A DNA stretch of 64,000 bases from Escherichia phage vB_EcoM-172859UKE1, in sequence record MZ234025.1; one strand, given 5' to 3'. A program made the translations under genes and the position numbers. The notes under the pieces were generated by a model. It ran no database searches. It worked only from the letters and a program-made list of their open reading frames with translations, and had not been told where the DNA came from. Each line of letters begins with the position of its first letter. Position 1 is the first letter of the stretch. This document shows, piece after piece, positions 5,361 through 52,546 of this stretch.

Positions 5361-5773
5361 TGAGATATAGCCTTCGTTGTTTTATCGCAGCTTTAGTTTT
5401 TGCTATTATTCCATTCATTTGGAACAGCCAGAATACTTACATGGAAACTAAAGTAATTCCTGTGGAGGTAGTGGAATTAATCTCAGGCCAATCTACAGGA
5501 AAATATTCTAAATTAGAATTTATTGCAGTCTATAAAGATGAGCAAGGACGAGTTTTTGACAGGCGTGTATCGCCATCGTTTTATACGCTTCTGAATAAAG
5601 GTGATACGATAGCTATAGAAATTCGTGAGATGGATATCAAACAAACTACTAAAGATAACTTGATTTGGTTCTTTGGTACAGTGTTGTTGGTTTCTATCTG
5701 TATCACAGGTTTTATTACATGTATTGTATTTGGCATTGCATATTTAATCGATGAAAGGAAAAATAATGTTTAA
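5360..5773 (+). CDS. membrane protein
   Basis: 137-aa ORF with N- and C-terminal hydrophobic helices. Confidence 0.45.
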   Translation: MRYSLRCFIAALVFAIIPFIWNSQNTYMETKVIPVEVVELISGQSTGKYSKLEFIAVYKDEQGRVFDRRVSPSFYTLLNKGDTIAIEIREMDIKQTTKDNLIWFFGTVLLVSICITGFITCIVFGIAYLIDERKNNV

Positions 5774-6029
5774 AGTGTATGGGTATGACTCTACTATTCA
5801 TAAATGCATTTATTGCGATAATGCGAAACGATTGCTGACTGTTAAGAAACAACCATTCGAATTCATTAATGTTATGCCAGAAAAAGGTGTATTCGATAAA
5901 GAAAAAATTGCTGAGCTTCTGGCTAAGCTTGGACGTGAAACACATGTTGGATTGACGATGCCTCAGGTGTTTGCTCCTGATGGAACTTCGATCGGTGGCT
6001 TTGACCAACTACGAGAATATTTTAAATGA
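5766..6029 (+). CDS. nrdC: thioredoxin/glutaredoxin NrdC
   Basis: MFKVYGYDSTIHKCIYCDNAKRLL... closely matches T4 NrdC as remembered; CxxC active site; start moved to internal ATG after AGGAAA RBS. Confidence 0.85.
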   Translation: MFKVYGYDSTIHKCIYCDNAKRLLTVKKQPFEFINVMPEKGVFDKEKIAELLAKLGRETHVGLTMPQVFAPDGTSIGGFDQLREYFK

Positions 6030-6382
6030 CATATTCATTAAATCTTAAAGATTTCCAAGATGTATACGAAGTTTGTGCCAATGAACTTGGTCCTGATGCT
6101 CCAACTATTATTGAAGTTTTAAATGTGCTCCCTTCATCATTAGCTTACGAAGCCAAATCATGGGGTTGGAACGACACTGTCGTTCGTGATGACCTTTACG
6201 TCCTGATGAACGATATGATGGTTAAAAAGGCAGAACCGGTTGCACCAATGGTTACCATTACCGTTGAAGAATATAATCGCCTGCAAGCCATTGAAGAGCT
6301 TCTGTGGAACATTGAATGTGACCTGCCGTCAGGGCTAGAATCCTGGATTGATTATGAAGAGCTCAATAAACTCCGGGGTTAA
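6026..6382 (+). CDS. hypothetical protein
   Basis: 118-aa ORF, ATGA-coupled to nrdC. Confidence 0.45.
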   Translation: MTYSLNLKDFQDVYEVCANELGPDAPTIIEVLNVLPSSLAYEAKSWGWNDTVVRDDLYVLMNDMMVKKAEPVAPMVTITVEEYNRLQAIEELLWNIECDLPSGLESWIDYEELNKLRG

Positions 6383-6510
6383 ACCGTGGTATTCTGCTCG
6401 TTGGGAGACTGTCGAGCCAGACGTTGAAACAGTTTACAACGACGAAGAAACGTGTTATGATGAACCTTCAATAAATGAATTAATTGATATGGAAATGGGA
6501 AGAGATTATT

Positions 6511-7605: not shown

Positions 7606-9419
7606 AAATTGAAAAAGAAATTGAAGGACTGATTCATAAAACTAATAAAGATCTTTTGAACGAGAATGCTAATAAAGATTCTCGTGTTTTTCCAACTCAA
7701 CGGGACCTTATGGCTGGTATTGTGTCTAAGCACATTGCCAAAAATATGGTCCCGTCTTTTATTATGAAAGCACATGAAAGCGGAATTATCCATTTCCATG
7801 ATATTGATTATTCTCCTGCTCTTCCATTTACTAATTGCTGTTTAGTAGATTTAAAAGGAATGCTTGAAAACGGATTTAAGCTTGGTAATGCACAGATTGA
7901 AACTCCTAAATCGATTGGTGTTGCTACTGCAATTATGGCACAAATTACTGCACAGGTTGCTTCACATCAGTACGGCGGAACGACTTTTGCTAATGTAGAT
8001 AAAGTACTTTCTCCTTATGTTAAACGCACCTATGCAAAACATATTGAGGATGCAGAAAAATGGCAAATCGCTGATGCGTTGAATTATGCCCAATCTAAAA
8101 CAGAAAAAGACGTATACGATGCATTCCAAGCGTATGAATACGAAGTAAATACTCTCTTTAGTTCAAACGGACAAACGCCTTTTGTAACAATTACATTTGG
8201 TACTGGAACCGACTGGACTGAACGAATTATTCAGAAGGCAATTCTTAAAAACCGCATTAAAGGCCTTGGTCGTGATGGAATAACTCCTATTTTCCCTAAA
8301 CTTGTTATGTTCGTTGAAGAGGGTGTCAATCTTTATAAAGACGACCCGAACTACGATATTAAGCAGCTTGCTCTAGAGTGTGCAAGCAAAAGAATGTATC
8401 CTGATATTATTTCAGTTAAGAACAATAAAGCTATCACTGGTTCATCTATTCCTGTTTCTCCAATGGGTTGTCGTAGTTTCTTGAGTGTATGGAAAGATTC
8501 GACTGGAAATGAAATTCTTGATGGACGTAATAATCTTGGTGTTGTAACACTGAATCTTCCTCGTATCGCATTAGATTCTTATATTGGAACACAATTTAAC
8601 GAACAGAAATTTGTTGAATTATTCAATGAACGAATGGACCTGTGTTTTGAAGCTTTGATGTGTAGAATTAGTTCTTTAAAGGGTGTTAAAGCAACTGTAG
8701 CTCCTATTCTTTACCAAGAAGGTGCATTCGGGGTTCGTCTTAAACCTGATGACGATATAATTGAGTTATTTAAAAACGGTAGAAGTTCAGTGTCCCTAGG
8801 ATACATTGGTATTCACGAATTGAATATTCTTGTCGGTCGTGATATTGGACAAGAAATTTTAACTAAAATGAATGCCCGTCTTAAACAGTGGACAGAAAGA
8901 ACCGGATTTGCTTTTAGTTTATATTCTACTCCTGCTGAAAACCTTTGTTATCGTTTCTGTAAACTCGATACTGAAAAATATGGAAGTGTAAAGGATGTTA
9001 CTGATAAAGGATGGTACACTAACAGTTTCCACGTTTCAGTAGAAGAAAATATCACTCCGTTTGAAAAGATTTCTCGTGAAGCACCGTATCATTTCATTGC
9101 GACGGGTGGTCACATTTCTTATGTTGAACTTCCAGATATGAAAAACAACCTAAAAGGACTTGAGGCTGTATGGGATTATGCTGCACAACATTTAGATTAT
9201 TTTGGTGTTAATATGCCAGTAGATAAATGTTTTACATGCGGAAGTACCCATGAAATGACTCCTACTGAAACCGGATTTGTTTGTTCTATTTGTGGAGAAA
9301 CTGACCCTAAAAAGATGAACACCATAAGAAGAACATGCGGTTATCTTGGAAATCCTAACGAACGCGGATTTAATCTCGGCAAAAATAAAGAAATCATGCA
9401 TAGGGTTAAACACCAATGA
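7602..9419 (+). CDS. nrdD: anaerobic ribonucleoside-triphosphate reductase
   Basis: 605 aa; C-terminal glycyl-radical region RRTCGYLG and Zn-ribbon CFTCG...CSICG; uninterrupted (no intron). Confidence 0.95.
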   Translation: MKIEKEIEGLIHKTNKDLLNENANKDSRVFPTQRDLMAGIVSKHIAKNMVPSFIMKAHESGIIHFHDIDYSPALPFTNCCLVDLKGMLENGFKLGNAQIETPKSIGVATAIMAQITAQVASHQYGGTTFANVDKVLSPYVKRTYAKHIEDAEKWQIADALNYAQSKTEKDVYDAFQAYEYEVNTLFSSNGQTPFVTITFGTGTDWTERIIQKAILKNRIKGLGRDGITPIFPKLVMFVEEGVNLYKDDPNYDIKQLALECASKRMYPDIISVKNNKAITGSSIPVSPMGCRSFLSVWKDSTGNEILDGRNNLGVVTLNLPRIALDSYIGTQFNEQKFVELFNERMDLCFEALMCRISSLKGVKATVAPILYQEGAFGVRLKPDDDIIELFKNGRSSVSLGYIGIHELNILVGRDIGQEILTKMNARLKQWTERTGFAFSLYSTPAENLCYRFCKLDTEKYGSVKDVTDKGWYTNSFHVSVEENITPFEKISREAPYHFIATGGHISYVELPDMKNNLKGLEAVWDYAAQHLDYFGVNMPVDKCFTCGSTHEMTPTETGFVCSICGETDPKKMNTIRRTCGYLGNPNERGFNLGKNKEIMHRVKHQ

Positions 9420-20142: not shown

Positions 20143-21105
20143 ATGATTACTATCAATTCCAAAGAACACATTCTAGAACAGAAATATCGTCCTTCTTCCA
20201 TTGACGAATGTATTCTGCCTGCGTATGACCATGAAACATTCAAGTCTTTAGTATCTAAAGGAAAACTTCCTCATATTATTTTACACTCTCCATCTCCTGG
20301 TACCGGTAAAACAACCGTAGCAAAAGCATTATGTAATGATATCAATGCCGAAATGATGTTCGTCAACGGTTCTGATTGTAAGATTGATTTTGTGCGTGGT
20401 CCGTTAACTGCATTCGCTCGTTCAGTCTCAATGGAAGGCAAACCTAAAGTTATTGTTATTGATGAATTTGACCGTAGTGGCCTCGCCGAATCACAACGTC
20501 ACCTTCGTACATTCATGGAAGAATTCTCTAGTAACTGTTCTATTATTATTACTGCCAACAACATCGATGGAATTATTGAACCATTACGTAGTCGTTGTCG
20601 AGTTATCGAATTCGGACGTCCAACCGAAGAAGATAAAATCTCGATGATGAAGAAAATGATTCATCGTATGGTTGAAATCTGTAAGAATGAAAATATTGAA
20701 ATCGCTGATATGAAAGTTGTTGCAGCTCTGGTTAAAAAGAACTTCCCGGACTTTCGACGTACAATTGGTCAATTAGACCAGTACTCGTCTAAAGGTGTTC
20801 TTGATGCAGGTATTTTGTCAATTGTAACCAATGATCGTGGCACGGTAGATGATGTCATAGAAGCAATGAAGAACAAAGATATCAAACAACTTCGTGCATT
20901 AGCTCCAAAATATGCTGCAGATTATTCATGGTTCATCGATAAATTAGTTTCTGAGTGTTATGACAAAGTTGCACCAGGTAAAAGTATTATTTCGCTTTAT
21001 GAAATTGCAGGCGAAAATAATAAGTTTCATGGATTAGCAAGTAATATTGAATTACATGTTATGTATATGCTTCTTCAACTGACCTGCGAACTAACTTGGA
21101 AATAA
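20143..21105 (+). CDS. 44: clamp loader large subunit gp44 (AAA+)
   Basis: Walker [11 protein letters not shown], Walker [12 protein letters not shown]-like motif. Confidence 0.95.
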
Positions 21106-22122: not shown

Positions 22123-24834
22123 ATGAAAGAATTTTACTTAACGGTTGAACAGATTGGTGATTCAATTTTTGAACGTTACATCGATTCTAATGGCCGTGAA
22201 CGTACTCGTGAAGTAGAATATAAACCATCACTGTTTGCTCATTGTCCAGAAAGTCAGGCTACGAAATATTTCGATATCTACGGTAAGCCGTGTACTCGTA
22301 AGTTGTTCGCTAATATGCGTGATGCCTCCCAATGGATTAAACGCATGGAAGATATCGGACTTGAAGCACTTGGCATGGACGATTTCAAATTGGCGTATTT
22401 GTCTGACACTTATAACTATGAAATCAAATACGACCATACAAAAATTCGTGTGGCTAACTTCGACATCGAAGTAACATCTCCGGATGGGTTCCCTGAGCCG
22501 TCACAAGCAAAACATCCTATTGATGCTATCACCCATTATGACTCAATTGACGACAGGTTCTACGTATTTGATCTATTGAATTCTCCATATGGTAATGTAG
22601 AAGAATGGTCTATTGAAATCGCTGCTAAGCTTCAAGAACAAGGTGGTGATGAAGTTCCATCTGAAATTATCGATAAAATCATTTATATGCCGTTCGATAA
22701 CGAAAAAGAATTGTTGATGGAATATCTCAACTTCTGGCAACAGAAAACTCCTGTCATTTTGACTGGATGGAACGTTGAGTCATTTGATATTCCATATGTG
22801 TATAACCGAATCAAGAATATTTTTGGCGAATCTACTGCGAAACGTTTATCACCACATCGTAAAACTCGTGTTAAAGTTATCGAAAACATGTATGGTTCTC
22901 GTGAAATCATTACATTGTTCGGTATCTCTGTTCTTGATTACATTGACCTTTACAAAAAATTCTCTTTTACCAATCAACCGTCGTATTCTCTGGATTACAT
23001 TTCAGAATTTGAATTGAACGTTGGTAAACTGAAATATGACGGCCCTATTTCTAAGCTTCGTGAAAGCAATCACCAACGATATATTTCTTATAACATTATC
23101 GATGTGTATCGTGTATTGCAAATTGATGCTAAGCGTCAGTTCATCAACTTGAGCTTGGACATGGGTTATTATGCTAAGATACAGATTCAATCTGTGTTTA
23201 GCCCAATTAAAACATGGGATGCTATTATTTTTAATAGCCTTAAAGAACAAAACAAGGTGATTCCACAAGGTCGTTCGCATCCAGTTCAACCTTACCCGGG
23301 TGCTTTTGTTAAGGAACCTATTCCAAATCGATACAAATATGTGATGAGCTTCGACCTCACATCTCTGTATCCAAGCATCATTCGCCAAGTGAATATTAGC
23401 CCGGAAACAATAGCAGGAACGTTTAAAGTAGCTCCACTGCATGATTATATTAACGCAATCGCTGAACGTCCTTCAGATGTGTACAGTTGCTCTCCTAACG
23501 GCATGATGTATTATAAAGACCGTGATGGTGTAGTTCCAACTGAAATCACTAAAGTCTTTAATCAACGTAAAGAACATAAAGGTTATATGCTTGCGGCTCA
23601 ACGTAATGGTGAAATAATTAAAGAGGCATTGCATAATCCTAATCTTTCTGTTGACGAACCATTAGATGTTGATTATCGTTTCGACTTCAGTGATGAGATT
23701 AAAGAAAAGATTAAAAAGTTGTCCGCTAAGTCTCTTAATGAAATGTTGTTTAGAGCTCAACGTACTGAAGTTGCAGGTATGACTGCACAGATTAACCGTA
23801 AATTGCTCATCAACTCACTTTATGGTGCACTTGGCAACGTTTGGTTCCGTTATTATGATTTGCGTAATGCTACTGCAATCACAACATTCGGGCAAATGGC
23901 TTTACAGTGGATTGAACGTAAAGTTAATGAATACCTGAATGAAGTTTGTGGTACAGAAGGTGAAGCTTTCGTTCTTTATGGTGATACAGACTCCATTTAC
24001 GTATCTGCGGATAAAATTATTGATAAGGTTGGTGAATCTAAATTCCGTGATACTAACCATTGGGTAGACTTCTTAGATAAGTTTGCACGTGAACGTATGG
24101 AACCAGCTATTGATAGAGGTTTCCGTGAAATGTGTGAATACATGAACAATAAACAACACTTAATGTTCATGGACCGAGAAGCTATCGCTGGTCCTCCGCT
24201 TGGTTCTAAAGGTATTGGCGGATTTTGGACTGGTAAGAAACGTTATGCATTAAACGTGTGGGATATGGAAGGTACTCGTTACGCTGAGCCTAAACTCAAA
24301 ATCATGGGTCTAGAGACTCAGAAATCTTCGACTCCTAAAGCAGTACAGAAAGCTCTTAAAGAATGTATTCGTCGTATGCTTCAAGAAGGTGAAGAATCAT
24401 TACAAGAATATTTTAAAGAGTTTGAAAAAGAATTCCGTCAATTGAATTATATTAGCATCGCGTCGGTATCTTCTGCGAATAACATTGCTAAATATGACGT
24501 CGGTGGATTCCCTGGTCCCAAATGCCCGTTCCATATTCGTGGAATTCTGACGTATAACCGAGCTATCAAAGGTAATATTGATGCACCACAAGTTGTAGAA
24601 GGTGAAAAAGTATATGTTCTGCCTTTACGTGAAGGAAACCCATTCGGTGATAAATGTATCGCATGGCCTTCTGGTACTGAAATCACAGATTTAATTAAAG
24701 ACGATGTACTTCATTGGATGGACTACACTGTTCTCCTTGAGAAGACATTTATTAAACCACTTGAAGGATTCACATCAGCAGCTAAACTCGATTACGAGAA
24801 GAAAGCATCTCTGTTCGATATGTTTGATTTTTGA
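22123..24834 (+). CDS. 43: DNA polymerase gp43 (family B)
   Basis: 903 aa; exonuclease FDIE, polymerase motifs SLYPS and YGDTDS. Confidence 0.97.
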   Translation: MKEFYLTVEQIGDSIFERYIDSNGRERTREVEYKPSLFAHCPESQATKYFDIYGKPCTRKLFANMRDASQWIKRMEDIGLEALGMDDFKLAYLSDTYNYEIKYDHTKIRVANFDIEVTSPDGFPEPSQAKHPIDAITHYDSIDDRFYVFDLLNSPYGNVEEWSIEIAAKLQEQGGDEVPSEIIDKIIYMPFDNEKELLMEYLNFWQQKTPVILTGWNVESFDIPYVYNRIKNIFGESTAKRLSPHRKTRVKVIENMYGSREIITLFGISVLDYIDLYKKFSFTNQPSYSLDYISEFELNVGKLKYDGPISKLRESNHQRYISYNIIDVYRVLQIDAKRQFINLSLDMGYYAKIQIQSVFSPIKTWDAIIFNSLKEQNKVIPQGRSHPVQPYPGAFVKEPIPNRYKYVMSFDLTSLYPSIIRQVNISPETIAGTFKVAPLHDYINAIAERPSDVYSCSPNGMMYYKDRDGVVPTEITKVFNQRKEHKGYMLAAQRNGEIIKEALHNPNLSVDEPLDVDYRFDFSDEIKEKIKKLSAKSLNEMLFRAQRTEVAGMTAQINRKLLINSLYGALGNVWFRYYDLRNATAITTFGQMALQWIERKVNEYLNEVCGTEGEAFVLYGDTDSIYVSADKIIDKVGESKFRDTNHWVDFLDKFARERMEPAIDRGFREMCEYMNNKQHLMFMDREAIAGPPLGSKGIGGFWTGKKRYALNVWDMEGTRYAEPKLKIMGLETQKSSTPKAVQKALKECIRRMLQEGEESLQEYFKEFEKEFRQLNYISIASVSSANNIAKYDVGGFPGPKCPFHIRGILTYNRAIKGNIDAPQVVEGEKVYVLPLREGNPFGDKCIAWPSGTEITDLIKDDVLHWMDYTVLLEKTFIKPLEGFTSAAKLDYEKKASLFDMFDF

Positions 24835-24874: not shown

Positions 24875-25510
24875 ATGAAAACTACTCCTATTACTATCGC
24901 TATTGACGCAATCGTAAAACAAGCTTCATCTCTTGCCACTATGGCTAAAGTAATTAGTCAAAACCCTGCTCGTTATAATGCTATTCTAGAAACTCTTCGA
25001 CGCCCTGGACTTAGTAATTATGAAAGCCGGGTAATTATTACAGGTGTTGGTAAGAATGCTAATATCGCAACTAAAGCTTCCGAGACTTTTGCTTCACTAG
25101 GTATTCCTAGCATGTATTTGAATACCGGGCATTATTCTCATGGTGACGCAGGATTTATTGCACCTAATGATGTATTAGTTCACATCAGTCGTTCTGGTAA
25201 GACTGAAGAAATGATAGGTGTTGCTAAACATCTTCGTATGATTCGTCCTCAGGTTAAACAGATTCTGTTACATTGTAACCCTGACATTCCACAAGAATAC
25301 GAAGCTCTTTTTGATTATACGTTCTGTACCGGTATCGCGGTAGAAGTTGACGAGAACTCTTTAGCTCCGACAATGTCCACTACATTGTTGTTAGCGCTTA
25401 TCGATACGTTCGCTATCAACCTTTCGTCTGAACGTGGATTTACCTCTAATGATTTCCTTAAGTTCCATCCAGGCGGTGCACTAGGTGCCATGTTACGAGG
25501 CGAACAATGA
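24875..25510 (+). CDS. SIS-domain sugar-phosphate isomerase (KdsD/GutQ-like arabinose-5-phosphate isomerase-like)
   Basis: 211 aa; ...TGVGKNANIATKASETFASLGIPS..., YSHGDAGF, ISRSGKTEE and C-terminal HPGGALG resemble SIS domain of A5P isomerases. Confidence 0.75.
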   Translation: MKTTPITIAIDAIVKQASSLATMAKVISQNPARYNAILETLRRPGLSNYESRVIITGVGKNANIATKASETFASLGIPSMYLNTGHYSHGDAGFIAPNDVLVHISRSGKTEEMIGVAKHLRMIRPQVKQILLHCNPDIPQEYEALFDYTFCTGIAVEVDENSLAPTMSTTLLLALIDTFAINLSSERGFTSNDFLKFHPGGALGAMLRGEQ

Positions 25511-25691: not shown

Positions 25692-27377
25692 ATGAAAAAA
25701 GCTGTTATTCTTGGTGCTGGATTGGCAACTCGTTTATATCCAATAACGCATCATATTCCTAAGGTGCTTGTTAACTATAAACAAGACACTATTCTGAGCA
25801 ATTTGTATACAATTTATTCTGACCTTGGCGCAGATGAAATTATTGTAGTAGTTCATTCAAAATTTGCTGAAACTGTTCGAGCTTATTGTGAGCAAGAAGG
25901 GTTCAATGTGACTATTCGTACAGTTGATGAAGCGTATGGTTCTGCTTATGCTCTTGCTAAATTACACAAAGATTTAGACGGCCATAATGTAATTGTTAAC
26001 TGGTGTGATATTATTCCTGATTTTGGTTCATGGTCTTGGAATGTTAACGCAATCTATGTTAAGGGTGACGAATGTCGATATAATTTCGACGGTGAAAATA
26101 TCACTAACGTAGGTTCAACAGGTGGTAATGTTGTAGGAATTTATCAGTTCAAAGACTGGGAATTCTATATGGGTTCTACCGATGAGGAAATTCATGAATA
26201 CTGCAAAGGACGTGATTTCGTAGAATTCCTTTACAGCGGCGCATTCAATAAATCAGAGCTTATGAATATCATCGACCTTGGTGATATGCCTAAACTTGAA
26301 AAGGCCCATGAAGTTCGTGAACTGAACCGTAGTTTTAATGCAGTTGAAATTGGCGAAGAAACTGTAACTAAATTCGCATTAACCGAACAGGGTCGAGCTC
26401 TTCAGAAAGATGAGATTTCGTGGTATTTGAAAGTGAAATCAGATTCAGTTCCTCAGTTAGTTTCTGTTAATGAAAATAACTTTGAAATGGAACGCATTAA
26501 AGGTAAGCCGGCATTTGAATATATTAAATCAAAATCAAGTCTTGCTCGTCCACAAATTGTTGATGCAATTTTAGATGCACTGAAATTCAGCACAGACACT
26601 TATTTTGTAAGTCCTGAAACTGTTCGTCGTGATTTCACTAAAGAATTCTATACGAAAGTTATTGATCGTTGTGAAAGCATTCAACCATTGATTGATTCAT
26701 TTGGTAAAATCACACACGTGAACTACACTAAGATTGGACGTCTGAAGCCAATGCTGAAACAAGCTTTAGAACACCTTATTCGTTATCATAACCGTTCTCA
26801 GGGACAGTACTCTGTTATTCATGGTGACCCGAACTTCAGTAATACTATGATTACTGATAACGGCGAAGTCAAGTTTATCGACCCTCGTGGATATTTTGGT
26901 GAAACCAAGATTTACGGGCCAAAATTGTATGATGAAGCTAAAGTGCTTTATGCTGTTTCAGGTTATGATGAATTCAATGCTAATCCGACCTGGGGGCAGT
27001 TTACTATTGATGAAACAACTTGTAATGTGACTATTAACATCAATCCATTAGTTTACAAATATGGAAAGATGAGTTCGTTTAACGAGTATCATCATTTGGC
27101 AGTGGCAATTATCTGGATTGCATTAGGTGGTTATTTCAAGAATAATCCACTTAAAGCGGTAGCCGCATATTATAAAGGTATGGAACTTCTGACTAAGCAA
27201 TTACGTAACATGGGCCGTGTACTTCAAGACGGCTCTATTAGTTATGACGTAGCAGAACCTGTAACGGCTACTCTGATTACAAAAAATCCTGGTAAATGGG
27301 TACTAACTGATAAAGAAACTGGTGTTTCCTATCGTCCAATCGGTGGCGATATCACTCATCAATGGGAACGAATCTAA
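25692..27377 (+). CDS. bifunctional sugar-1-phosphate nucleotidyltransferase / kinase-like protein
   Basis: N-terminal AVILGAGLATRLYPIT (NTP-transferase G-x-G-x-R); C-terminal HGDPNFSN and IDPRG resemble APH/anomeric sugar kinase catalytic motifs. Confidence 0.7.
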   Translation: MKKAVILGAGLATRLYPITHHIPKVLVNYKQDTILSNLYTIYSDLGADEIIVVVHSKFAETVRAYCEQEGFNVTIRTVDEAYGSAYALAKLHKDLDGHNVIVNWCDIIPDFGSWSWNVNAIYVKGDECRYNFDGENITNVGSTGGNVVGIYQFKDWEFYMGSTDEEIHEYCKGRDFVEFLYSGAFNKSELMNIIDLGDMPKLEKAHEVRELNRSFNAVEIGEETVTKFALTEQGRALQKDEISWYLKVKSDSVPQLVSVNENNFEMERIKGKPAFEYIKSKSSLARPQIVDAILDALKFSTDTYFVSPETVRRDFTKEFYTKVIDRCESIQPLIDSFGKITHVNYTKIGRLKPMLKQALEHLIRYHNRSQGQYSVIHGDPNFSNTMITDNGEVKFIDPRGYFGETKIYGPKLYDEAKVLYAVSGYDEFNANPTWGQFTIDETTCNVTININPLVYKYGKMSSFNEYHHLAVAIIWIALGGYFKNNPLKAVAAYYKGMELLTKQLRNMGRVLQDGSISYDVAEPVTATLITKNPGKWVLTDKETGVSYRPIGGDITHQWERI

Positions 27378-27763
27378 TGCACCGTGTAGAAAACATGCTT
27401 AATCTTTGTTTTGATGTCGATGATTGTATAACAGAGTGGAATAACAATCGTGATTACGTGAACTTCAAACCAGACGTCGAAATGGTGTCTGCCATTAATG
27501 CTCTGTATGATGCAGGGCATACCATAACGCTTTACACTGCTCGCGGTATGAAGTCAGTAGGTCCTGGACGTATAGCAATTGACATTCTCCCAAGTCTGAT
27601 TCAGAACTTGGCAAACATTGGCTTGAAGTACCATAATTTGCTAACACATAAACCAGTATATGATTGGATTATCGACGACAAAGCTATGCGTCCTGACGAA
27701 TTCAAAGCTCTTATGAATAAAGGCGAATTCGAAACATTTAAACCATATAAACCGAATCTATAA
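27377..27763 (+). CDS. HAD-superfamily phosphatase
   Basis: FDVDDCIT (DxDxT motif I) near N-terminus; ~128 aa, size of KdsC/GmhB-type phosphatases; TAATG coupling. Confidence 0.7.
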   Translation: MHRVENMLNLCFDVDDCITEWNNNRDYVNFKPDVEMVSAINALYDAGHTITLYTARGMKSVGPGRIAIDILPSLIQNLANIGLKYHNLLTHKPVYDWIIDDKAMRPDEFKALMNKGEFETFKPYKPNL

Positions 27764-27820: not shown

Positions 27821-28981
27821 ATGAATACTTTTAAAATCGGAACGAATTTTGATTTAGCTCTTCTTGATAAAATCGTAGAGCTCAATAAAACTTATCCTAA
27901 TAGCTTGATAAATGAAGTATACGGCTCTACAAGAGAAATGGCTTTTGTAGCAGCCAGACCTGATTTTAGGCTTCCTGACGTTGACAAAAAGATGTTAGAA
28001 GATTACGTTAAACGTTGTAACGAATTAGGTATTTGCTTTAACTATACACTCAACACGATAAATCCTGGTTCAAAAAGAGAACTAGTTGAGTGGAAGAAGA
28101 AAGCTATTCAGGATTATGTTCAGTATCTTTGGTCAATAGGCGTATGGCGTATTACTATCGCTAACCCTGTTGTTATGGAAATTGTTCGTGAAGTCAATAA
28201 AGACATTGAGATTGAAGTTTCAACAATTCTACATGTCGATGCTGTAACTCAAATCAAATACTTGCATGACCAATATAATATCAAAAAGGTCTGCTGTGGA
28301 ATTCATAAGAACCGTTCAGTTTCTTTCCTGAAGCGTGCAGCAGAGTTTTGCAATAAGAACAATATAATATTTGAAGTTCTTGTAAATGAGTTCTGTTCTA
28401 ATGCTGGTAAAGGGTATACAACACATTGTAGCTATCGTGACTCTTGCTATATTTTCCATAGTACTGATGTTACAGCTGATGATGCTAAATCCTTAAACGG
28501 ATATCCTATGCAGCACTGTATTAAAGCTCGTGATACAGACCCATTTAACTGGTTGAGAACTCGTTTTGTTCGTCCTCAAGATTTGAAACTTTATAATGAT
28601 ATTGGTATCACTCAATTCAAAGTTTCAGGACGTACAGGTAGCACAGACTACATTTTGAAAGTTCTTGAAGCATACGCTTCTGAAAAGTTTGAAGGTAATT
28701 TGTTAGAACTGTGGAAGCCTTTAGAGACTATTTTCACTCTTGAAAACGAAACTGAGTTTTCACATACAGTAAATATTGAAACCTCTTTGTTAGATGGCTT
28801 TTTAGAAAAAAGGTGGTTCAGACATCCAGATTTCGATTGTGCTAATGAAATCTGCGGGACGACGTGTACATATTGTGAAAGATATTATAAACGTCAATTA
28901 TCTAAAAACGGGTTAGCAGAAAACTCTATATCTATTATTGATATAACTAACTCTGATGACGCTTTGAGGTACCCGGAATGA
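27821..28981 (+). CDS. U32-family-like Cys-rich protein (possible Fe-S enzyme)
   Basis: 386 aa; FNYTLNT, EVLVNEFCS...HCSYRDSC, FKVSGRTGS resemble U32 motifs; C-terminal CxxxCxxxCxYC. Confidence 0.55.
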   Translation: MNTFKIGTNFDLALLDKIVELNKTYPNSLINEVYGSTREMAFVAARPDFRLPDVDKKMLEDYVKRCNELGICFNYTLNTINPGSKRELVEWKKKAIQDYVQYLWSIGVWRITIANPVVMEIVREVNKDIEIEVSTILHVDAVTQIKYLHDQYNIKKVCCGIHKNRSVSFLKRAAEFCNKNNIIFEVLVNEFCSNAGKGYTTHCSYRDSCYIFHSTDVTADDAKSLNGYPMQHCIKARDTDPFNWLRTRFVRPQDLKLYNDIGITQFKVSGRTGSTDYILKVLEAYASEKFEGNLLELWKPLETIFTLENETEFSHTVNIETSLLDGFLEKRWFRHPDFDCANEICGTTCTYCERYYKRQLSKNGLAENSISIIDITNSDDALRYPE

Positions 28982-29260: not shown

Positions 29261-29977
29261 ATGGGAAAACATAACACAATGAAATATATCAAAGCCGCAG
29301 ATTTTCAAACCGCATTTAAAGCAGTCAATCGTGAAATTTTAGAAAACCCGGAATTCGTAACTGATTCTCGTATTGGACGTTGTAATGAAATTGGGTCTAT
29401 GACAGTAGTTGTTGACACTCCATCATCATTCAAAATGACCGACCCACGTATTAACCGCATCTCTTATGAATATGCCGAAGACTTCTGGAAGTTTATGATT
29501 TCTGGTGGTACCAACGCAGAAGAAGCGTTTAAGGCATATCCTAATGTCGCTAAATTTATTTCTAAACCAAAATCAGATGTTTTGCCGGCGAACTTCAACA
29601 CTTTCTATGGTCCTCGCATTGCGGCCCAATTACCAGCTCTTCTAAAAGAACTTAAAGAGAAGCCTAACTCCCGAAGAGTTGTGTTCCAAATTCTAGAAAG
29701 TTCTGATCAGGCTTTGCTTGATTCAGACGAAACGCTTGAATATCCATGTACTGACTCAGTGACTTATTATATTCGTGATGGTAAGCTTTATACCCACTGT
29801 CATATGCGTTCTCAGAACTGTGCTGTTGTTATGCAGTTGGATTTTTATCTCCAAGGAAAATTACTTCATTATATCGCTAACGAATGTGGTGTAGAAGTTG
29901 GTGATTATACTCATACCATGGTAAGTGCCCATGTGTTTGAACGTGATTTTGATTATGTTAAAGGATTCCTTGACTAA
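29261..29977 (+). CDS. 42: dCMP hydroxymethylase gp42
   Basis: 238 aa thymidylate-synthase-fold protein; catalytic region EYPCTDSVTYYIRDGKL...HMRSQN parallels T4 gp42; lacks TS PCH motif. Confidence 0.85.
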   Translation: MGKHNTMKYIKAADFQTAFKAVNREILENPEFVTDSRIGRCNEIGSMTVVVDTPSSFKMTDPRINRISYEYAEDFWKFMISGGTNAEEAFKAYPNVAKFISKPKSDVLPANFNTFYGPRIAAQLPALLKELKEKPNSRRVVFQILESSDQALLDSDETLEYPCTDSVTYYIRDGKLYTHCHMRSQNCAVVMQLDFYLQGKLLHYIANECGVEVGDYTHTMVSAHVFERDFDYVKGFLD

Positions 29978-30876
29978 TGGCTATTTTCCGCGTACCTATT
30001 TTGAGTATGCGGTCTTATGAAACTGGACAGTATGCTATCCTTAAGGATGGCAACTTCCAACTTCATTTGCACCGTGCTAATCCGGGTGATGTGATTACAT
30101 ATCCACGTAATGCATCTGATATTAAAGAATGCGAACGTCTTTTTCCAGAATTTAAGTTTGTTCCATTATGGTATAAAGATAACGCGTATAACACTCGTAA
30201 ATATTTCTGGTCTGAAAATGAATTTGTGGTTGATTCATTAATTGCTTATTATGATTGTGATTTTCTAATCACAGATATCACTGGATATGACGGCGCTTTT
30301 GATGTAGAATTCAATTTCAATATCACTGCAGACCCTAATAAACCACGTTTTTATATTGACGAATTCTTAAAAACCGATATGTTGTCGGTTAATCGTTCAC
30401 TTCAAACTACTGTGTTGAATGAACGTCAAAAAGAAGTGCTGGTTAACGCAGGTGCAGATGGTAATAAGATTATCGTAACACAGAAAGTTATACGTCCTTC
30501 CATCATGCAGCGTCTTGTAGGTGATTTGGCTCCTATTCATCTAGATGGTATTTTTCATCCATTTCGAATTAGTGACCCATGCTATCGTTTTGAACAAGTG
30601 GTTGAATGTGCAATTCAATTAGGTCAACCGCTTTATATAACCGATCCAAATAATAGCTTCGACAGAAATAAGTATCCTGAAGAAGCGCTGATTCGAATTT
30701 TTAAACCAACTAAAACTGAGTACTATCAAATTCTTAAAGGACGTCCGAAGATTCAATATTTCGAAAATCCTGAAGAAGTATTCCATCCAGGTCTTGGCGA
30801 GTTCATCTACTTTAATGCTTTAATTTCTTCGCCGTATAATATACCTAAATACGAAGATGTTGTAATCGAGGAATAA
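29977..30876 (+). CDS. hypothetical protein occupying the beta-glucosyltransferase locus (candidate DNA sugar transferase)
   Basis: 299-aa ORF ATGA-coupled to gene 42; no similarity recognised to T4 beta-gt. Confidence 0.6.
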   Translation: MAIFRVPILSMRSYETGQYAILKDGNFQLHLHRANPGDVITYPRNASDIKECERLFPEFKFVPLWYKDNAYNTRKYFWSENEFVVDSLIAYYDCDFLITDITGYDGAFDVEFNFNITADPNKPRFYIDEFLKTDMLSVNRSLQTTVLNERQKEVLVNAGADGNKIIVTQKVIRPSIMQRLVGDLAPIHLDGIFHPFRISDPCYRFEQVVECAIQLGQPLYITDPNNSFDRNKYPEEALIRIFKPTKTEYYQILKGRPKIQYFENPEEVFHPGLGEFIYFNALISSPYNIPKYEDVVIEE

Positions 30877-30877
30877 A

Positions 30878-31426
30878 ATGGCTAAAATTATTTTAGTAGA
30901 TGGCCCGGATAATGCTGGTAAAACAACTTTCATTAATGACATAATGGAAATTAGTGAAAGATATGTAAAGATTGATTTCCCTAAAAGAACGGTTGATGGA
31001 CGTTTCGATGTTAAGTCTCGAAATGAAGTTGGCTGTTTCGAAACGATGTTGAATTATTTAGACCCTACTAAGATTTATCTATTAGACCGTGGATATATTA
31101 GTAACTGGGTTTATGGACGTATTCGTCAAGATGCGGACTCGGTTCTTGACGTTTATGAACAGGATTATGTTCGTCTTTGCCAAAACCATGATGTGTTCAC
31201 AATTATTTTAACACGTAACGAAATGACTGAAAGTTTTGAAGACGACCTTATTACTTTGTCTTCATTCGGTTTTAATACAGTCATTTCACATTTTGAAGAG
31301 TTTGCAATTCATAACAAAATCCAAACGTATCAATTACTTAATCATGATGGTGCTAACAAAGTTATAGGATTTAATGCAAGCGAACGTAATGATTTGATTA
31401 CAGAAATCATCAAATGGGCTCGTTAA
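30878..31426 (+). CDS. P-loop kinase (NMP/sugar kinase-like)
   Basis: N-terminal Walker A GPDNAGKTT and LDRGY region typical of small P-loop kinases. Confidence 0.6.
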   Translation: MAKIILVDGPDNAGKTTFINDIMEISERYVKIDFPKRTVDGRFDVKSRNEVGCFETMLNYLDPTKIYLLDRGYISNWVYGRIRQDADSVLDVYEQDYVRLCQNHDVFTIILTRNEMTESFEDDLITLSSFGFNTVISHFEEFAIHNKIQTYQLLNHDGANKVIGFNASERNDLITEIIKWAR

Positions 31427-31444
31427 GAGCCATTTAAAGTTTTA

Positions 31445-31471
31445 AATGCTGTATAACCCTTAGTATATAAT
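31445..31471 (+). promoter_or_regulatory. possible MotA-dependent middle promoter for uvsX
   Basis: AAATGCTGTA (one mismatch to MotA box), 12-bp spacer, TATAAT 31466-31471. Confidence 0.35.
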
Positions 31472-31524: not shown

Positions 31525-32697
31525 ATGTCTGATTTAAAATCTCGTCTGATTAAAGCTTCTACTTCTAAAATGACTGCAGACTTGACTAAGTCTAAGCTGT
31601 TTAATAATCGTGATGAAGTCCCTACTCGTATTCCGATGTTGAATATTGCATTAGGTGGTGCACTGAATGCAGGGTTGCAATCAGGCTTGACTATTTTTGC
31701 TGCACCTTCTAAACATTTTAAAACATTGTTTGGACTGACCATGGTTGCAGCATATATGAAGAAATATAAAGATGCAATTTGTTTGTTCTATGATTCAGAA
31801 TTTGGTGCTTCAGAATCTTATTTTCGTTCAATGGGTGTTGATTTAGACCGTGTAGTTCATACTCCGATTCAATCTGTCGAACAACTTAAAGTTGATATGA
31901 CTAATCAGCTTGACGCGATTGAACGCGGTGATAAAGTTATTATCTTTATCGATTCAATCGGTAATACTGCATCTAAGAAAGAAACTGAAGATGCATTGAA
32001 CGAGAAAGTTGTAGGTGATATGTCTCGTGCTAAGGCACTTAAATCTCTTTTCCGTATTGTGACCCCGTATCTGACTATTAAAGATATTCCGTGTGTTGCA
32101 ATTAACCATACCGCAATGGAAATTGGCGGATTGTATCCTAAAGAGATTATGGGCGGTGGTACAGGTATTCTTTATTCTGCCAACACAGTGTTTTTTATCT
32201 CTAAACGTCAGGTTAAAGAAGGTACAGAATTGACCGGTTATGACTTCACGTTGAAAGCAGAAAAATCTCGCACTGTTAAAGAAAAATCTACTTTCCCAAT
32301 CACGGTTAATTTTGATGGTGGTATCGACCCATTCAGCGGCTTGCTAGAAATGGCAACTGAAATTGGTTTTGTAGTTAAGCCTAAAGCTGGTTGGTATGCT
32401 CGCGAATTCCTTGACGAAGAAACAGGTGAAATGATTCGTGAAGAAAAATCATGGCGTGCTAAAGCTACTGATTGTGTAGAATTCTGGGGACCTTTGTTTA
32501 AACACAAACCTTTCCGAGATGCAATTGAAACTAAATATAAACTAGGTGCTATCTCTTCTATTAAAGAAGTTGATGACGCTGTTAACGACCTTATTAATTG
32601 CAAAGCAACAACTAAAGTTCCGGTTAAAACTTCTGATGCTCCGTCTGCAGCAGATATAGAAAACGACCTTGACGAAATGGAAGATTTCGATGAATAA
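31525..32697 (+). CDS. uvsX: recombinase UvsX (RecA-like)
   Basis: 390 aa; MSDLKSRLIKASTSK... and Walker A GPSKHFKT closely match T4 UvsX. Confidence 0.95.
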   Translation: MSDLKSRLIKASTSKMTADLTKSKLFNNRDEVPTRIPMLNIALGGALNAGLQSGLTIFAAPSKHFKTLFGLTMVAAYMKKYKDAICLFYDSEFGASESYFRSMGVDLDRVVHTPIQSVEQLKVDMTNQLDAIERGDKVIIFIDSIGNTASKKETEDALNEKVVGDMSRAKALKSLFRIVTPYLTIKDIPCVAINHTAMEIGGLYPKEIMGGGTGILYSANTVFFISKRQVKEGTELTGYDFTLKAEKSRTVKEKSTFPITVNFDGGIDPFSGLLEMATEIGFVVKPKAGWYAREFLDEETGEMIREEKSWRAKATDCVEFWGPLFKHKPFRDAIETKYKLGAISSIKEVDDAVNDLINCKATTKVPVKTSDAPSAADIENDLDEMEDFDE

Positions 32698-51445: not shown

Positions 51446-52546
51446 ATGAAAGTTATGTTTATCCCATCTCGTGCAGCCCCATTTAATCCTGACCGTGTAC
51501 AAGGTGGCCTTGAAGCAGTACATTTAAATGTGTTGAAATATCTTGTGTCCATCGGTGCTGATATTGATTATATCGGCTTTGATAATGACACGTTTGGTGA
51601 CTGGAAAGTTACACACCATCCTGTTGGTCATCTGGCTAAATTCAGTCTAGGTATGAGTTATACTATGGCTCGTAAGATTGTTGAACTAGCCAGCATTAAT
51701 GAATACGATTTCGTTGTTACAATGGAACCGACCAAACTAACGGTCCAAGCAATTAAAGATGCTGGACTCTCTAAAGTTCATAAGAATTTTATGGCTACAC
51801 CGTTTGAACCAGTGTCTCGTGGTATTGTTCAAATTTGGGATCAGACTATCCAGATTCACAAGAACGGTGGGAAGAGCTATGCTCCTACTAAAGCATTCCG
51901 TGAATTTGAACGTAAATATTGTCATATGACTTCAGCTCTTACTGACAAAATTGATTATGACTACTGGCGTGAAAATCCATTATTTGAACCTGATGACTAC
52001 CCGGTTATTTGTTTGAATGAAAAACCTGAAGTTCTTCCGGCAACTGAGTTGATTATTAGTGCTCAACGTTATGACACTAAGATGCGTCGCACTGATGTTG
52101 CTCTTGAAGCAATTAAAGCACTAGGCGAAAATGGTATTGGTTATTGTCCAAGCAAATGGGCACCACCAGCTAAATATCCTGTTATTATTGATGCTCCACA
52201 CAGTGAAATCATGGAACGTCTTAAAACAGCTAAAGCACTTATTAATACATGCCCTGACACAGGTACGGTAGAGAATAGTTCTATTGAAGCTATCTCTAAA
52301 GGTGTCCCTGTAATCCAGTTAGTTTTTAAGGATTATCCTCATGCGACATTCGAATACGATCCAGATACTGTGCGTGTAGAAATTGATTCCTCTACTCCTA
52401 AGAAAGAAGTAGTTGCGCTTTACACAAAAGCTGTATTAGAATTCACTGACACATACGAAGCTCGAGTTAAACGTGCTGAAGCAGTATGGAAGAAGTATAA
52501 CCGAGATGCAGTTGTTGCGATGTGGGATAAAATCTTCACAGCGTAA
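51446..52546 (+). CDS. putative GT-B-fold glycosyltransferase
   Basis: 366 aa; MKVMFIPS start and C-terminal TGTVENSSIEAISKGVPVIQ resembling GT4-type motif; weak inference. Confidence 0.5.
   Translation: MKVMFIPSRAAPFNPDRVQGGLEAVHLNVLKYLVSIGADIDYIGFDNDTFGDWKVTHHPVGHLAKFSLGMSYTMARKIVELASINEYDFVVTMEPTKLTVQAIKDAGLSKVHKNFMATPFEPVSRGIVQIWDQTIQIHKNGGKSYAPTKAFREFERKYCHMTSALTDKIDYDYWRENPLFEPDDYPVICLNEKPEVLPATELIISAQRYDTKMRRTDVALEAIKALGENGIGYCPSKWAPPAKYPVIIDAPHSEIMERLKTAKALINTCPDTGTVENSSIEAISKGVPVIQLVFKDYPHATFEYDPDTVRVEIDSSTPKKEVVALYTKAVLEFTDTYEARVKRAEAVWKKYNRDAVVAMWDKIFTA

Follow-up and report, generated by a model that had tools for sequence, protein, structure and literature searches.

The window analysed here is a stretch of 64,000 nucleotides from Escherichia phage vB_EcoM-172859UKE1 (sequence record MZ234025.1), which shows 98.6% identity to genomes of Mosigvirus, e.g. 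vB_Eco_F27, JK42, JS09 and APCEc01. Its subject is a small P-loop kinase gene upstream of uvsX. We take this gene, with moderate confidence, to encode a compact, YorR-like enzyme of the thymidylate kinase (TMPK) fold that phosphorylates 5-substituted dCMP, turning 5-hydroxy-dCMP (5hodCMP) into 5hodCDP, in a gene cluster for arabinosyl-5-hydroxycytosine. The open reading frame (ORF) and its translation signal are located as follows:

30878..31426, + strand: kinase ORF, 182 amino acids (aa), ATG start, from the ORF list; orthologue of RB69 ORF045c, compact TMPK-fold P-loop kinase
30868..30873, + strand: Shine-Dalgarno sequence GAGGAA, inside the 3' end of the GT1 gene, read off the sequence

An earlier note on this DNA had described a 182-aa Walker-A protein between a candidate transferase gene and uvsX, and this description was borne out. 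The ORF list shows an ORF of 299 aa, here called GT1, upstream (29977..30876) and uvsX downstream (31525..32697; Pfam T4_UVSX_C, E 1e-38), and the motifs GPDNAGKTT and LDRGY correspond to residues 9-17 and 69-73 of the protein. The kinase is identical to RB69 ORF045c at 180 of 181 positions (~99%). Because of this identity, its presence in 343 phage records, the 37 invariant columns of its alignment and a ratio of nonsynonymous to synonymous substitution rates (dN/dS) of ~0.18, a chance ORF is ruled out and the kinase is a real gene. A single base separates the GT1 stop codon (TAA, 30874-30876) from the kinase ATG, and a scan for promoters and terminators between the two genes revealed nothing above the shuffled expectation. 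Since neither a promoter nor a terminator stands out between them, GT1 and the kinase are probably co-transcribed and translationally coupled.

Conservation of motifs was read from an alignment of 20 homologues (45-98% identity). The invariant columns fall into the groups GxDNxGKT, FPK, GR, RNEV, FET, DR, SN.VY, R113, F.DDLI, FN, H156 and N160. Those with a recognizable counterpart in TMPKs, or characteristic of the family, lie at the following positions:

30902..30928, + strand: Walker A, G9-P-D11-N12-A-G14-K15-T16-T17; G9, D11, N12, G14, K15 and T16 invariant; aligns with EGLDKSGKTT of the vaccinia TMPK (PDB 2v54)
30977..30988, + strand: F34-P35-K36-R37 after strand 2; F34, P35 and K36 invariant; aligns with FPQR of 2v54
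31019..31051, + strand: helix R48-N49-E50-V51..F54-E55-T56..L58, with invariant, family-specific columns; helix 45-58 in the structural model
31085..31114, + strand: D70-R71-G-Y-I-S75-N76-W-V78-Y79, the catalytic and deoxyribose-sensing TMPK motif 'DR(Y)..S..(A)Y'; aligns with DRYAFSGVAY of 2v54
31211..31252, + strand: T112-R113-N114 ... F120-x-D122-D123-L124-I125 after strand 4, invariant columns; candidate lid and family-specific DDLI

The third position of the P-loop is an Asp (D11), as is typical for TMPKs, and Asn12 stands where class-I TMPKs have an Arg. Eukaryotic and poxviral TMPKs bind phosphate through an 'FPxR' motif, to which F34-P35-K36-R37 corresponds. Among 75 more distant homologues R71 never varies, and the conservation of D70 and Y79 is at least 90%; D11 and Y79 fall at the TMPK positions for contact with the 3'-OH and for sensing of the 2' position. 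R113 is the only invariant Arg of the candidate lid and follows strand 4; its position relative to the lids of TMPKs suggests that this segment acts as the lid. Walker A is intact, the DR motif is present and R113 is a candidate lid arginine. The region that binds the base differs. Profile alignments showed 16-21 additional residues in TMPKs over the thymine-binding helices, which carry the stacking Phe and the O4-reading Arg. TMPKs have three helices in the base-binding region, whereas the model of the kinase displayed a single one (45-58). The helix from R48 to L58 is presumed to bind the base. Read together, these features suggest an active, trimmed TMPK-fold enzyme for a 2'-deoxynucleoside monophosphate (dNMP) with a remodelled base pocket.

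Database searches place the kinase near TMPKs and outside their curated models. The window kinase has no match to Pfam Thymidylate_kin (PF02223) even at E<=1, and NCBIfam gave nothing above threshold (TIGR00041: 16.6 bits against a cut-off of 83.25). PHROG 761, named 'thymidylate kinase', does match (E 1.6e-45), and RefSeq records carry the same label. A PDB search with the single sequence returned P-loop noise only (RecA, thioredoxin) and was set aside for a family profile. An exhaustive profile search revealed a small family, with 312 representatives at E<=1e-3 and only 13 at E<=1e-30; a search for related loci with a narrower alignment found mostly known T4-like phages. Searching the PDB with a profile of 75 members detected YorR at E 1e-18 and true TMPKs at ~1e-12, over the full length. 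The family is acidic (isoelectric point (pI) 4.65-5.8). The earlier note had proposed such a profile search and had named an unrelated ATPase family as the outcome that would speak against a kinase; what the search returned is the overall TMPK fold.

The same searches bear on the idea that the protein is a deoxynucleoside kinase (dNK) or acts at another phosphorylation level, for instance in salvage of 5-hydroxy-deoxycytidine or in the step from nucleoside diphosphate (NDP) to triphosphate. TMPKs rank above dNKs in both fold searches, the P-loop Asp, FPxR and DR..S..Y are all of TMPK type, and Pfam Thymidylate_kin is matched by 40 of the 75 more distant family members (E<=1e-3) whereas dNK is matched by 2. 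We therefore regard this possibility as improbable.

The kinase is part of a complete RB69 gp55-gp45 module, which in the window lies between the DNA polymerase gene (22123..24834) and uvsX. For this pol-uvsX module Thomas et al. 2018 reported no T4 homologues (PMC6024577). Besides the kinase, the following genes of the module, and one further candidate, were annotated:

24875..25510, + strand: arabinose-5-phosphate isomerase, SIS domain, RB69 gp55 orthologue (Pfam SIS, E 8e-10; annotation of the matching record)
25692..27377, + strand: bifunctional sugar-1-phosphate nucleotidyltransferase and kinase, 561 aa, AfhE / RB69 gp52:53 orthologue (Pfam NTP_transferase; weak APH/Fructosamin_kin)
27362..27763, + strand: HAD-type phosphatase, AfhF / RB69 gp51 orthologue (NCBIfam EcbF-BcbF, E 5e-13; PHROG 1238)
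27821..28981, + strand: U32-family protein, RB69 gp50 orthologue (Pfam Peptidase_U32, E 7e-11; weak UbiU match)
29261..29977, + strand: thymidylate-synthase (ThyA) homologue, 5hodCMP synthase, RB69 gp48 orthologue (Pfam Thymidylat_synt, E 2e-15; 143E, 169N, 177D)
29977..30876, + strand: GT1, putative first arabinosyltransferase, 299 aa, RB69 gp46:47 orthologue (PHROG 3891, E 3e-156; 99.3% identical to RB69; PMC13326640 Table 1)
51446..52546, + strand: ORF of 366 aa between topoisomerase gp39 and rIIA, candidate second arabinosyltransferase (RB69 ORF003c, 366 residues) by position and length only

The chemistry of this pathway has been revised. RB69 DNA was described in 2018 as containing arabinosyl-hydroxymethylcytosine (PMC6024577); it is now known, like that of Acinetobacter phage DLP3, to carry arabinosylated 5-hydroxycytosine (5hoC), and the ThyA homologue RB69 gp48 has been identified as a flavin-dependent 5hodCMP synthase with 143E/169N/177D as diagnostic residues (PMC13326640). 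The earlier note had suggested a nucleotide kinase tuned to modified dNMPs, with hydroxymethyl-dCMP (hm-dCMP) as a substrate to be screened. The first part stands as the best reading, given the TMPK/dNK-fold P-loop kinase and its genomic tie to the modification pathway. The choice of hm-dCMP is outdated: RB69-type DNA contains arabinosylated 5hoC and the ThyA homologue of the window carries all three diagnostic residues, so hm-dCMP does not apply here and the modified nucleotide made by this phage group is 5hodCMP (PMC13326640).

The note had offered as a second option an additional sugar or nucleotide kinase of the modification pathway. A sugar or sugar-nucleotide kinase of UDP-arabinose synthesis would suit a cluster that also encodes an arabinose-5-phosphate isomerase, an AfhE-like enzyme and a HAD phosphatase. 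However, PMC13326640 cites a report on phage HY126 according to which the C-terminal domain of the AfhE-type enzyme fills that step, and synthesis of UDP-arabinofuranose has reportedly been reconstituted without the cluster kinase. Fold and motifs of the protein are those of a nucleotide kinase, with the residues by which TMPKs hold deoxyribose and the 5'-phosphate retained. In addition, Morganella phage MP1 retains the kinase and has no sugar genes, and a kinase-like gene stands at the same place in the hexose-using cluster of Rhizobium phage RL38J1. A sugar kinase is thus very improbable.

Some features of the neighbouring genes were noted in passing. In the record of phage NRG-P0074 a homing-endonuclease gene (5663..6424 of locus L001) splits the genes for the nucleotidyltransferase-kinase and the HAD phosphatase; in the window these two genes overlap directly (27362..27377). 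The same record names the 561-aa nucleotidyltransferase-kinase 'dCMP deaminase', by its look a misannotation. The U32-family protein has been termed a 'sugar or heterocycle reductase' (PMC13326640). In the cluster of Morganella phage Rgz1 a 'putative chorismate mutase' is encoded two genes downstream of the U32 gene (locus L036, 6667..7827 and 8023..8400). The U32 proteins RlhA, TrhP and UbiU/V carry out prephenate-dependent, O2-independent hydroxylations, including formation of 5-hydroxycytidine in rRNA. By analogy, U32 protein and chorismate mutase could provide an anaerobic route to 5hoC beside the O2- and flavin-dependent synthase. Some metagenomic clusters have a flavin reductase or flavodoxin-like gene adjoining the 5hodCMP-synthase homologue (L023, 9068..9613, FMN_red; L027, 4507..5016, Flavodoxin_2/FMN_red), a neighbour that fits the reported flavin dependence of the synthase; the Mosigvirus cluster of the window contains no such gene.

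Downstream, the gap between the kinase stop codon and uvsX holds, at 31444..31471 on the + strand, the sequence AAATGCTGTA, then 12 nt and TATAAT. This arrangement resembles the consensus of a T4 MotA-dependent middle promoter; the candidate was missing from the listing of the sigma-70 scan. If the promoter is real, uvsX would have a promoter of its own and the kinase would be the last gene of the modification operon.

The link between the kinase and the 5hoC pathway extends well beyond Mosigvirus. Searches with tblastn detected the kinase in 343, GT1 in 348 and the AfhE-like enzyme in 373 phage records. Counts per genus are identical for the three proteins in phages of Escherichia (176), Acinetobacter (57), Shigella (15), Enterobacter (9), Proteus (7) and Yersinia (6). 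The matching Escherichia counts of kinase, GT1 and AfhE suggest that T-even phages with hydroxymethylcytosine lack the kinase. Linkage was counted from a profile scan of all fetched loci, 27 of which had enough flanking sequence: a ThyA homologue was found in the kinase cluster at 26 of these 27 loci, usually together with GT1, and the exception is MP1. The 143E/169N/177D signature was present in all seven neighbouring ThyA homologues checked, while a second ThyA gene in one marine locus is canonical. The kinase follows GT1 in Mosigvirus, Karamvirus, Acinetobacter phages, Thanatos, Rgz1 and WSPA; in Dhakavirus, Marfavirus and Proteus phages it is found between the phosphatase gene and either the ThyA homologue or the U32 gene. 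Relatives with ~30-33% identity on marine and other metagenomic contigs lie in clusters of the same kind.

The exception deserves a closer look. MP1 (NC_031020.1) carries an intact kinase orthologue between polymerase and uvsX (20500..21030, - strand) with all invariant motifs kept; a search of its whole 163 kb revealed no synthase, GT1, sugar genes or U32 protein. Rgz1, a congener of MP1, has the full cluster. Comparison of the two kinases gave a dN/dS of ~0.18, with dS saturated, compared with 0.04 for uvsX and 0.10 for gp41. The only ThyA-family gene of MP1 is at the td locus (142020..142859, - strand). Its product reads GLNFDLIQ, with FNM in the corresponding place in Rgz1, Proteus SJ_PmiM, the T5-like phage S124 and Vibrio SSP002: the position equivalent to 177 of E. 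coli ThyA is an Asp in MP1 (N177D) and an Asn in these four close relatives, whereas Leu143 and Asp169 are retained. According to references cited in PMC13326640, N177D is the classical change that makes a dUMP-specific enzyme specific for dCMP. A dCTPase-like gene, a DenB-like gene and a gp1 are likewise present in MP1. Judged from this one residue, td of MP1 is predicted to be a dCMP methylase and MP1 may possess DNA with 5-methylcytosine; a 5-substituted dCMP would then still be on hand for its kinase, and MP1 would have no thymidylate synthase of its own. A search for published DNA chemistry of MP1 found none. Because td of MP1 uniquely carries N177D, we consider this phage an ambiguous case and not a refutation of the link to the pathway.

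MP1 is relevant to the most conventional explanation, namely that the protein is an ordinary dTMP kinase or general dNMP kinase which raises the supply of deoxynucleoside triphosphates (dNTPs) without being specifically tied to the modified base. The TMPK fold, the label 'thymidylate kinase' of PHROG 761 and RefSeq, and an intact copy under purifying selection (dN/dS ~0.18) in MP1, which has no 5hoC or arabinose genes, all agree with it. Against it stand the failure of the PF02223 and TIGR00041 models, the ~16-21 residues of thymine-binding helices that are gone in the profile alignments, and an occurrence that follows the 5hodCMP-synthase cluster almost perfectly. Moreover, T-even phages already have gp1, the T4 version of which handles dTMP, a gp1 is present in MP1 too, and N177D in td of MP1 suggests that this phage still makes a 5-substituted dCMP. 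We therefore consider an ordinary dTMP kinase unlikely.

Distant relatives of the kinase point in another direction. Four of them (P0059, P0060, P0065 and P0067; 314-357 aa) are fused to a C-terminal DNA glycosylase domain of the MBD4 type, a helix-hairpin-helix (HhH)-GPD domain, which matched MBD4 structures at E 1e-9 and kept the catalytic Asp; an MBD4-like domain was looked for in the window and none was found. One fusion (L023, 8001..9074) lies beside a ThyA homologue of the 5hodCMP-synthase type, an FMN reductase and a SIS isomerase, and another (L029, 127..1092) has a GT1-like gene next downstream. MBD4 excises deaminated 5-substituted cytosines opposite G. The deamination product of 5hoC is 5-hydroxyuracil. 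Gene order is likewise suggestive in RL38J1, a phage of a different family in which 5hoC is decorated with hexoses: ThyA homologue, GT1 and a kinase-like gene follow each other, and the first two are clearly homologous to those of the window. The third, gp214 (L040, 24792..25427, - strand), gave no more than a weak match to the broad profile and was rejected as a family member. Its Walker A is atypical, with GKDT where GK[ST]T is expected, and PR takes the place of DR. The parallel with RL38J1 is thus one of position and fold only, and gp214 and the Straboviridae kinase may differ in catalysis.

These relatives raise the possibility of a role at the level of DNA or in partnership with GT1. In this case the kinase would, for instance, phosphorylate, bind or present a flipped-out 5hoC, or would act on a glycosylated nucleotide, comparable to the 5-hydroxymethyl-deoxyuridine (5-hmdU) DNA kinase and its HhH transferase in thymidine hypermodification. 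The published precedent of a P-loop kinase that works with an HhH glycosylase-like enzyme, the MBD4-type fusions beside a 5hodCMP-synthase-type ThyA or a GT1-like gene, and the order of ThyA homologue, GT1 and kinase-like gene that returns in RL38J1 are in line with it. So is the location of the kinase directly downstream of GT1, probably with translational coupling, and its adjacency to GT1 in many lineages. Such a role would also explain why phages that cover the 5hodCMP step with gp1 retain the kinase. However, the likeness to the 5-hmdU DNA kinase gp54 of Pseudomonas phage M6 is confined to the P-loop, and the fused domain is unlike the M6 aGPT-Pplase. The family is acidic, which leads one to expect a small-molecule kinase, and it keeps the TMPK residues for the sugar and phosphate of a free dNMP. 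In Dhakavirus, Marfavirus and Proteus phages kinase and GT1 are not neighbours, MP1 retains the kinase without GT1, and on chemical grounds the transfer of arabinose from UDP-arabinose to the 5-OH needs no activation by phosphate. We rank this possibility below an ordinary dTMP kinase and regard it as rather unlikely.

We thus favour phosphorylation of free 5hodCMP. The ThyA homologue encoded two genes upstream would make 5hodCMP, and the cluster kinase would use ATP to convert it to 5hodCDP, alongside the dNMP kinase of the T4 gp1 type. Host NDP kinase would then form 5hodCTP for incorporation by the phage polymerase, and glycosylation would follow on the DNA. In favour of this reading, the protein retains residues for catalysis and dNMP binding, namely G9, D11, G14, K15, T16, F34-P35-K36(-R37), D70-R71, S75, Y79 and R113. 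While fold, conservation of the catalytic motifs and genomic linkage were observed, we infer the substrate and the reason for the redundancy with gp1. In the literature, RB69p045 is listed as 'Nucleotide kinase' (PMC13326640 Table 1). The Figure 3 legend of a preprint of June 2025 (bioRxiv 10.1101/2025.06.16.659550) named DLP3 gp78 and RB69 gp45 as the co-expressed 'cognate dNMP kinases'; according to legend, methods and text of the published paper, the in-vivo assays used RB69 gp159 and DLP3 gp169 (PMC13326640). We read the published methods as a correction of the naming in the preprint.

Several points weigh against this proposal. Its main weakness is the redundancy with the gp1-type kinase: RB69 gp159, which is of this type, turns 5hodCMP into 5hodCDP in vitro, and the synthase alone leads to traces of 5hodC in E. 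coli DNA (PMC13326640), so that the cluster kinase is, strictly speaking, dispensable for the 5hodCMP step. In the accessible literature we found no experiment on this kinase or on RB69 gp45, and no demonstrated pathway step. With the curated TMPK models failing and the base-binding helices shortened, homology does not reveal the specificity of the kinase. Our argument concerning MP1 is built on one residue and no chemistry, and the fusions to a glycosylase domain, like the repeated occurrence next to GT1, point to a possible role at the DNA level. In a milder version of the proposal, the kinase could be a specificity gate for any 5-substituted dCMP, which would have allowed MP1 to move from 5hoC to the predicted 5-methylcytosine.

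The gene itself is a candidate familiar from earlier work: an identical or near-identical copy is present in more than 150 deposited phages, RefSeq and PHROGs have labelled it, and it appears in listings of 2021 and 2026. The comparative study of 2021 considered it presumably part of the modification pathway. Many T-even phages that are candidates for therapy (Mosigvirus, Dhakavirus, Acinetobacter and Klebsiella phages) owe to arabinosyl-5-hydroxycytosine their protection against restriction enzymes, CRISPR and defences based on glycosylases. Elucidation of the pathway came only in 2025-2026, and among the cluster genes present in almost every lineage the kinase is the one for which the accessible literature showed no demonstrated step. 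A dedicated kinase for 5-substituted dCMP, if confirmed, would be a useful reagent in the preparation of 5hodCTP and would reveal by what means phages keep dCMP out; a role linked to GT1 or to DNA would add a new step to the pathway.

Comparison with known systems sets the kinase apart from two types of enzyme. The 5-hmdU DNA kinase (5-HMUDK) of Pseudomonas phage M6, gp54, is likewise a small phage P-loop kinase, and its gene adjoins that of a thymidylate-synthase homologue in a cluster for pyrimidine hypermodification. Its partner is an HhH 'glycosylase-like' protein; an HhH-GPD domain is fused to some relatives of our kinase. Membership in 5-HMUDK was nevertheless rejected, as the family profiles match M6 gp54 over residues 1-24 only (4-11 bits), and the fused C-terminal domain showed no resemblance to M6 aGPT-Pplase. 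Moreover, the substrate of 5-HMUDK is DNA, on which it generates a leaving group; O-glycosylation of 5hoC requires no such step. T4 gp1 (PDB 1dek) and RB69 gp159 are functional analogues that phosphorylate modified dCMP, which in the case of gp159 is 5hodCMP in vitro; the substrates of T4 gp1 include hm-dCMP. Similarity in fold or sequence between 1dek and the kinase was not found.

Closer relationships were seen within the TMPK fold. The TMPKs of vaccinia (A48R, 2v54), human, yeast and Aquifex (2pbr) are with ~205 aa longer than the kinase with its 182 aa, a difference that includes base-binding helices longer by ~16-21 residues. The kinase also has Asn in place of the class-I P-loop Arg and invariants of its own (R42, R48-N49-E50, F54-E55-T56, DDLI and H156). 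YorR of the Bacillus subtilis prophage SPbeta (PDB 2axp / 3kb2) showed significant profile similarity to the kinase family over its full length; FPK and DDLI are absent from YorR in the alignment, and it has no known link to modified bases. The nearest known system is RB69 gp45 (RB69ORF045c / RB69p045, NP_861735.1), from which the kinase of the window differs in nothing of substance and with which it shares its neighbours and the pol-uvsX module.

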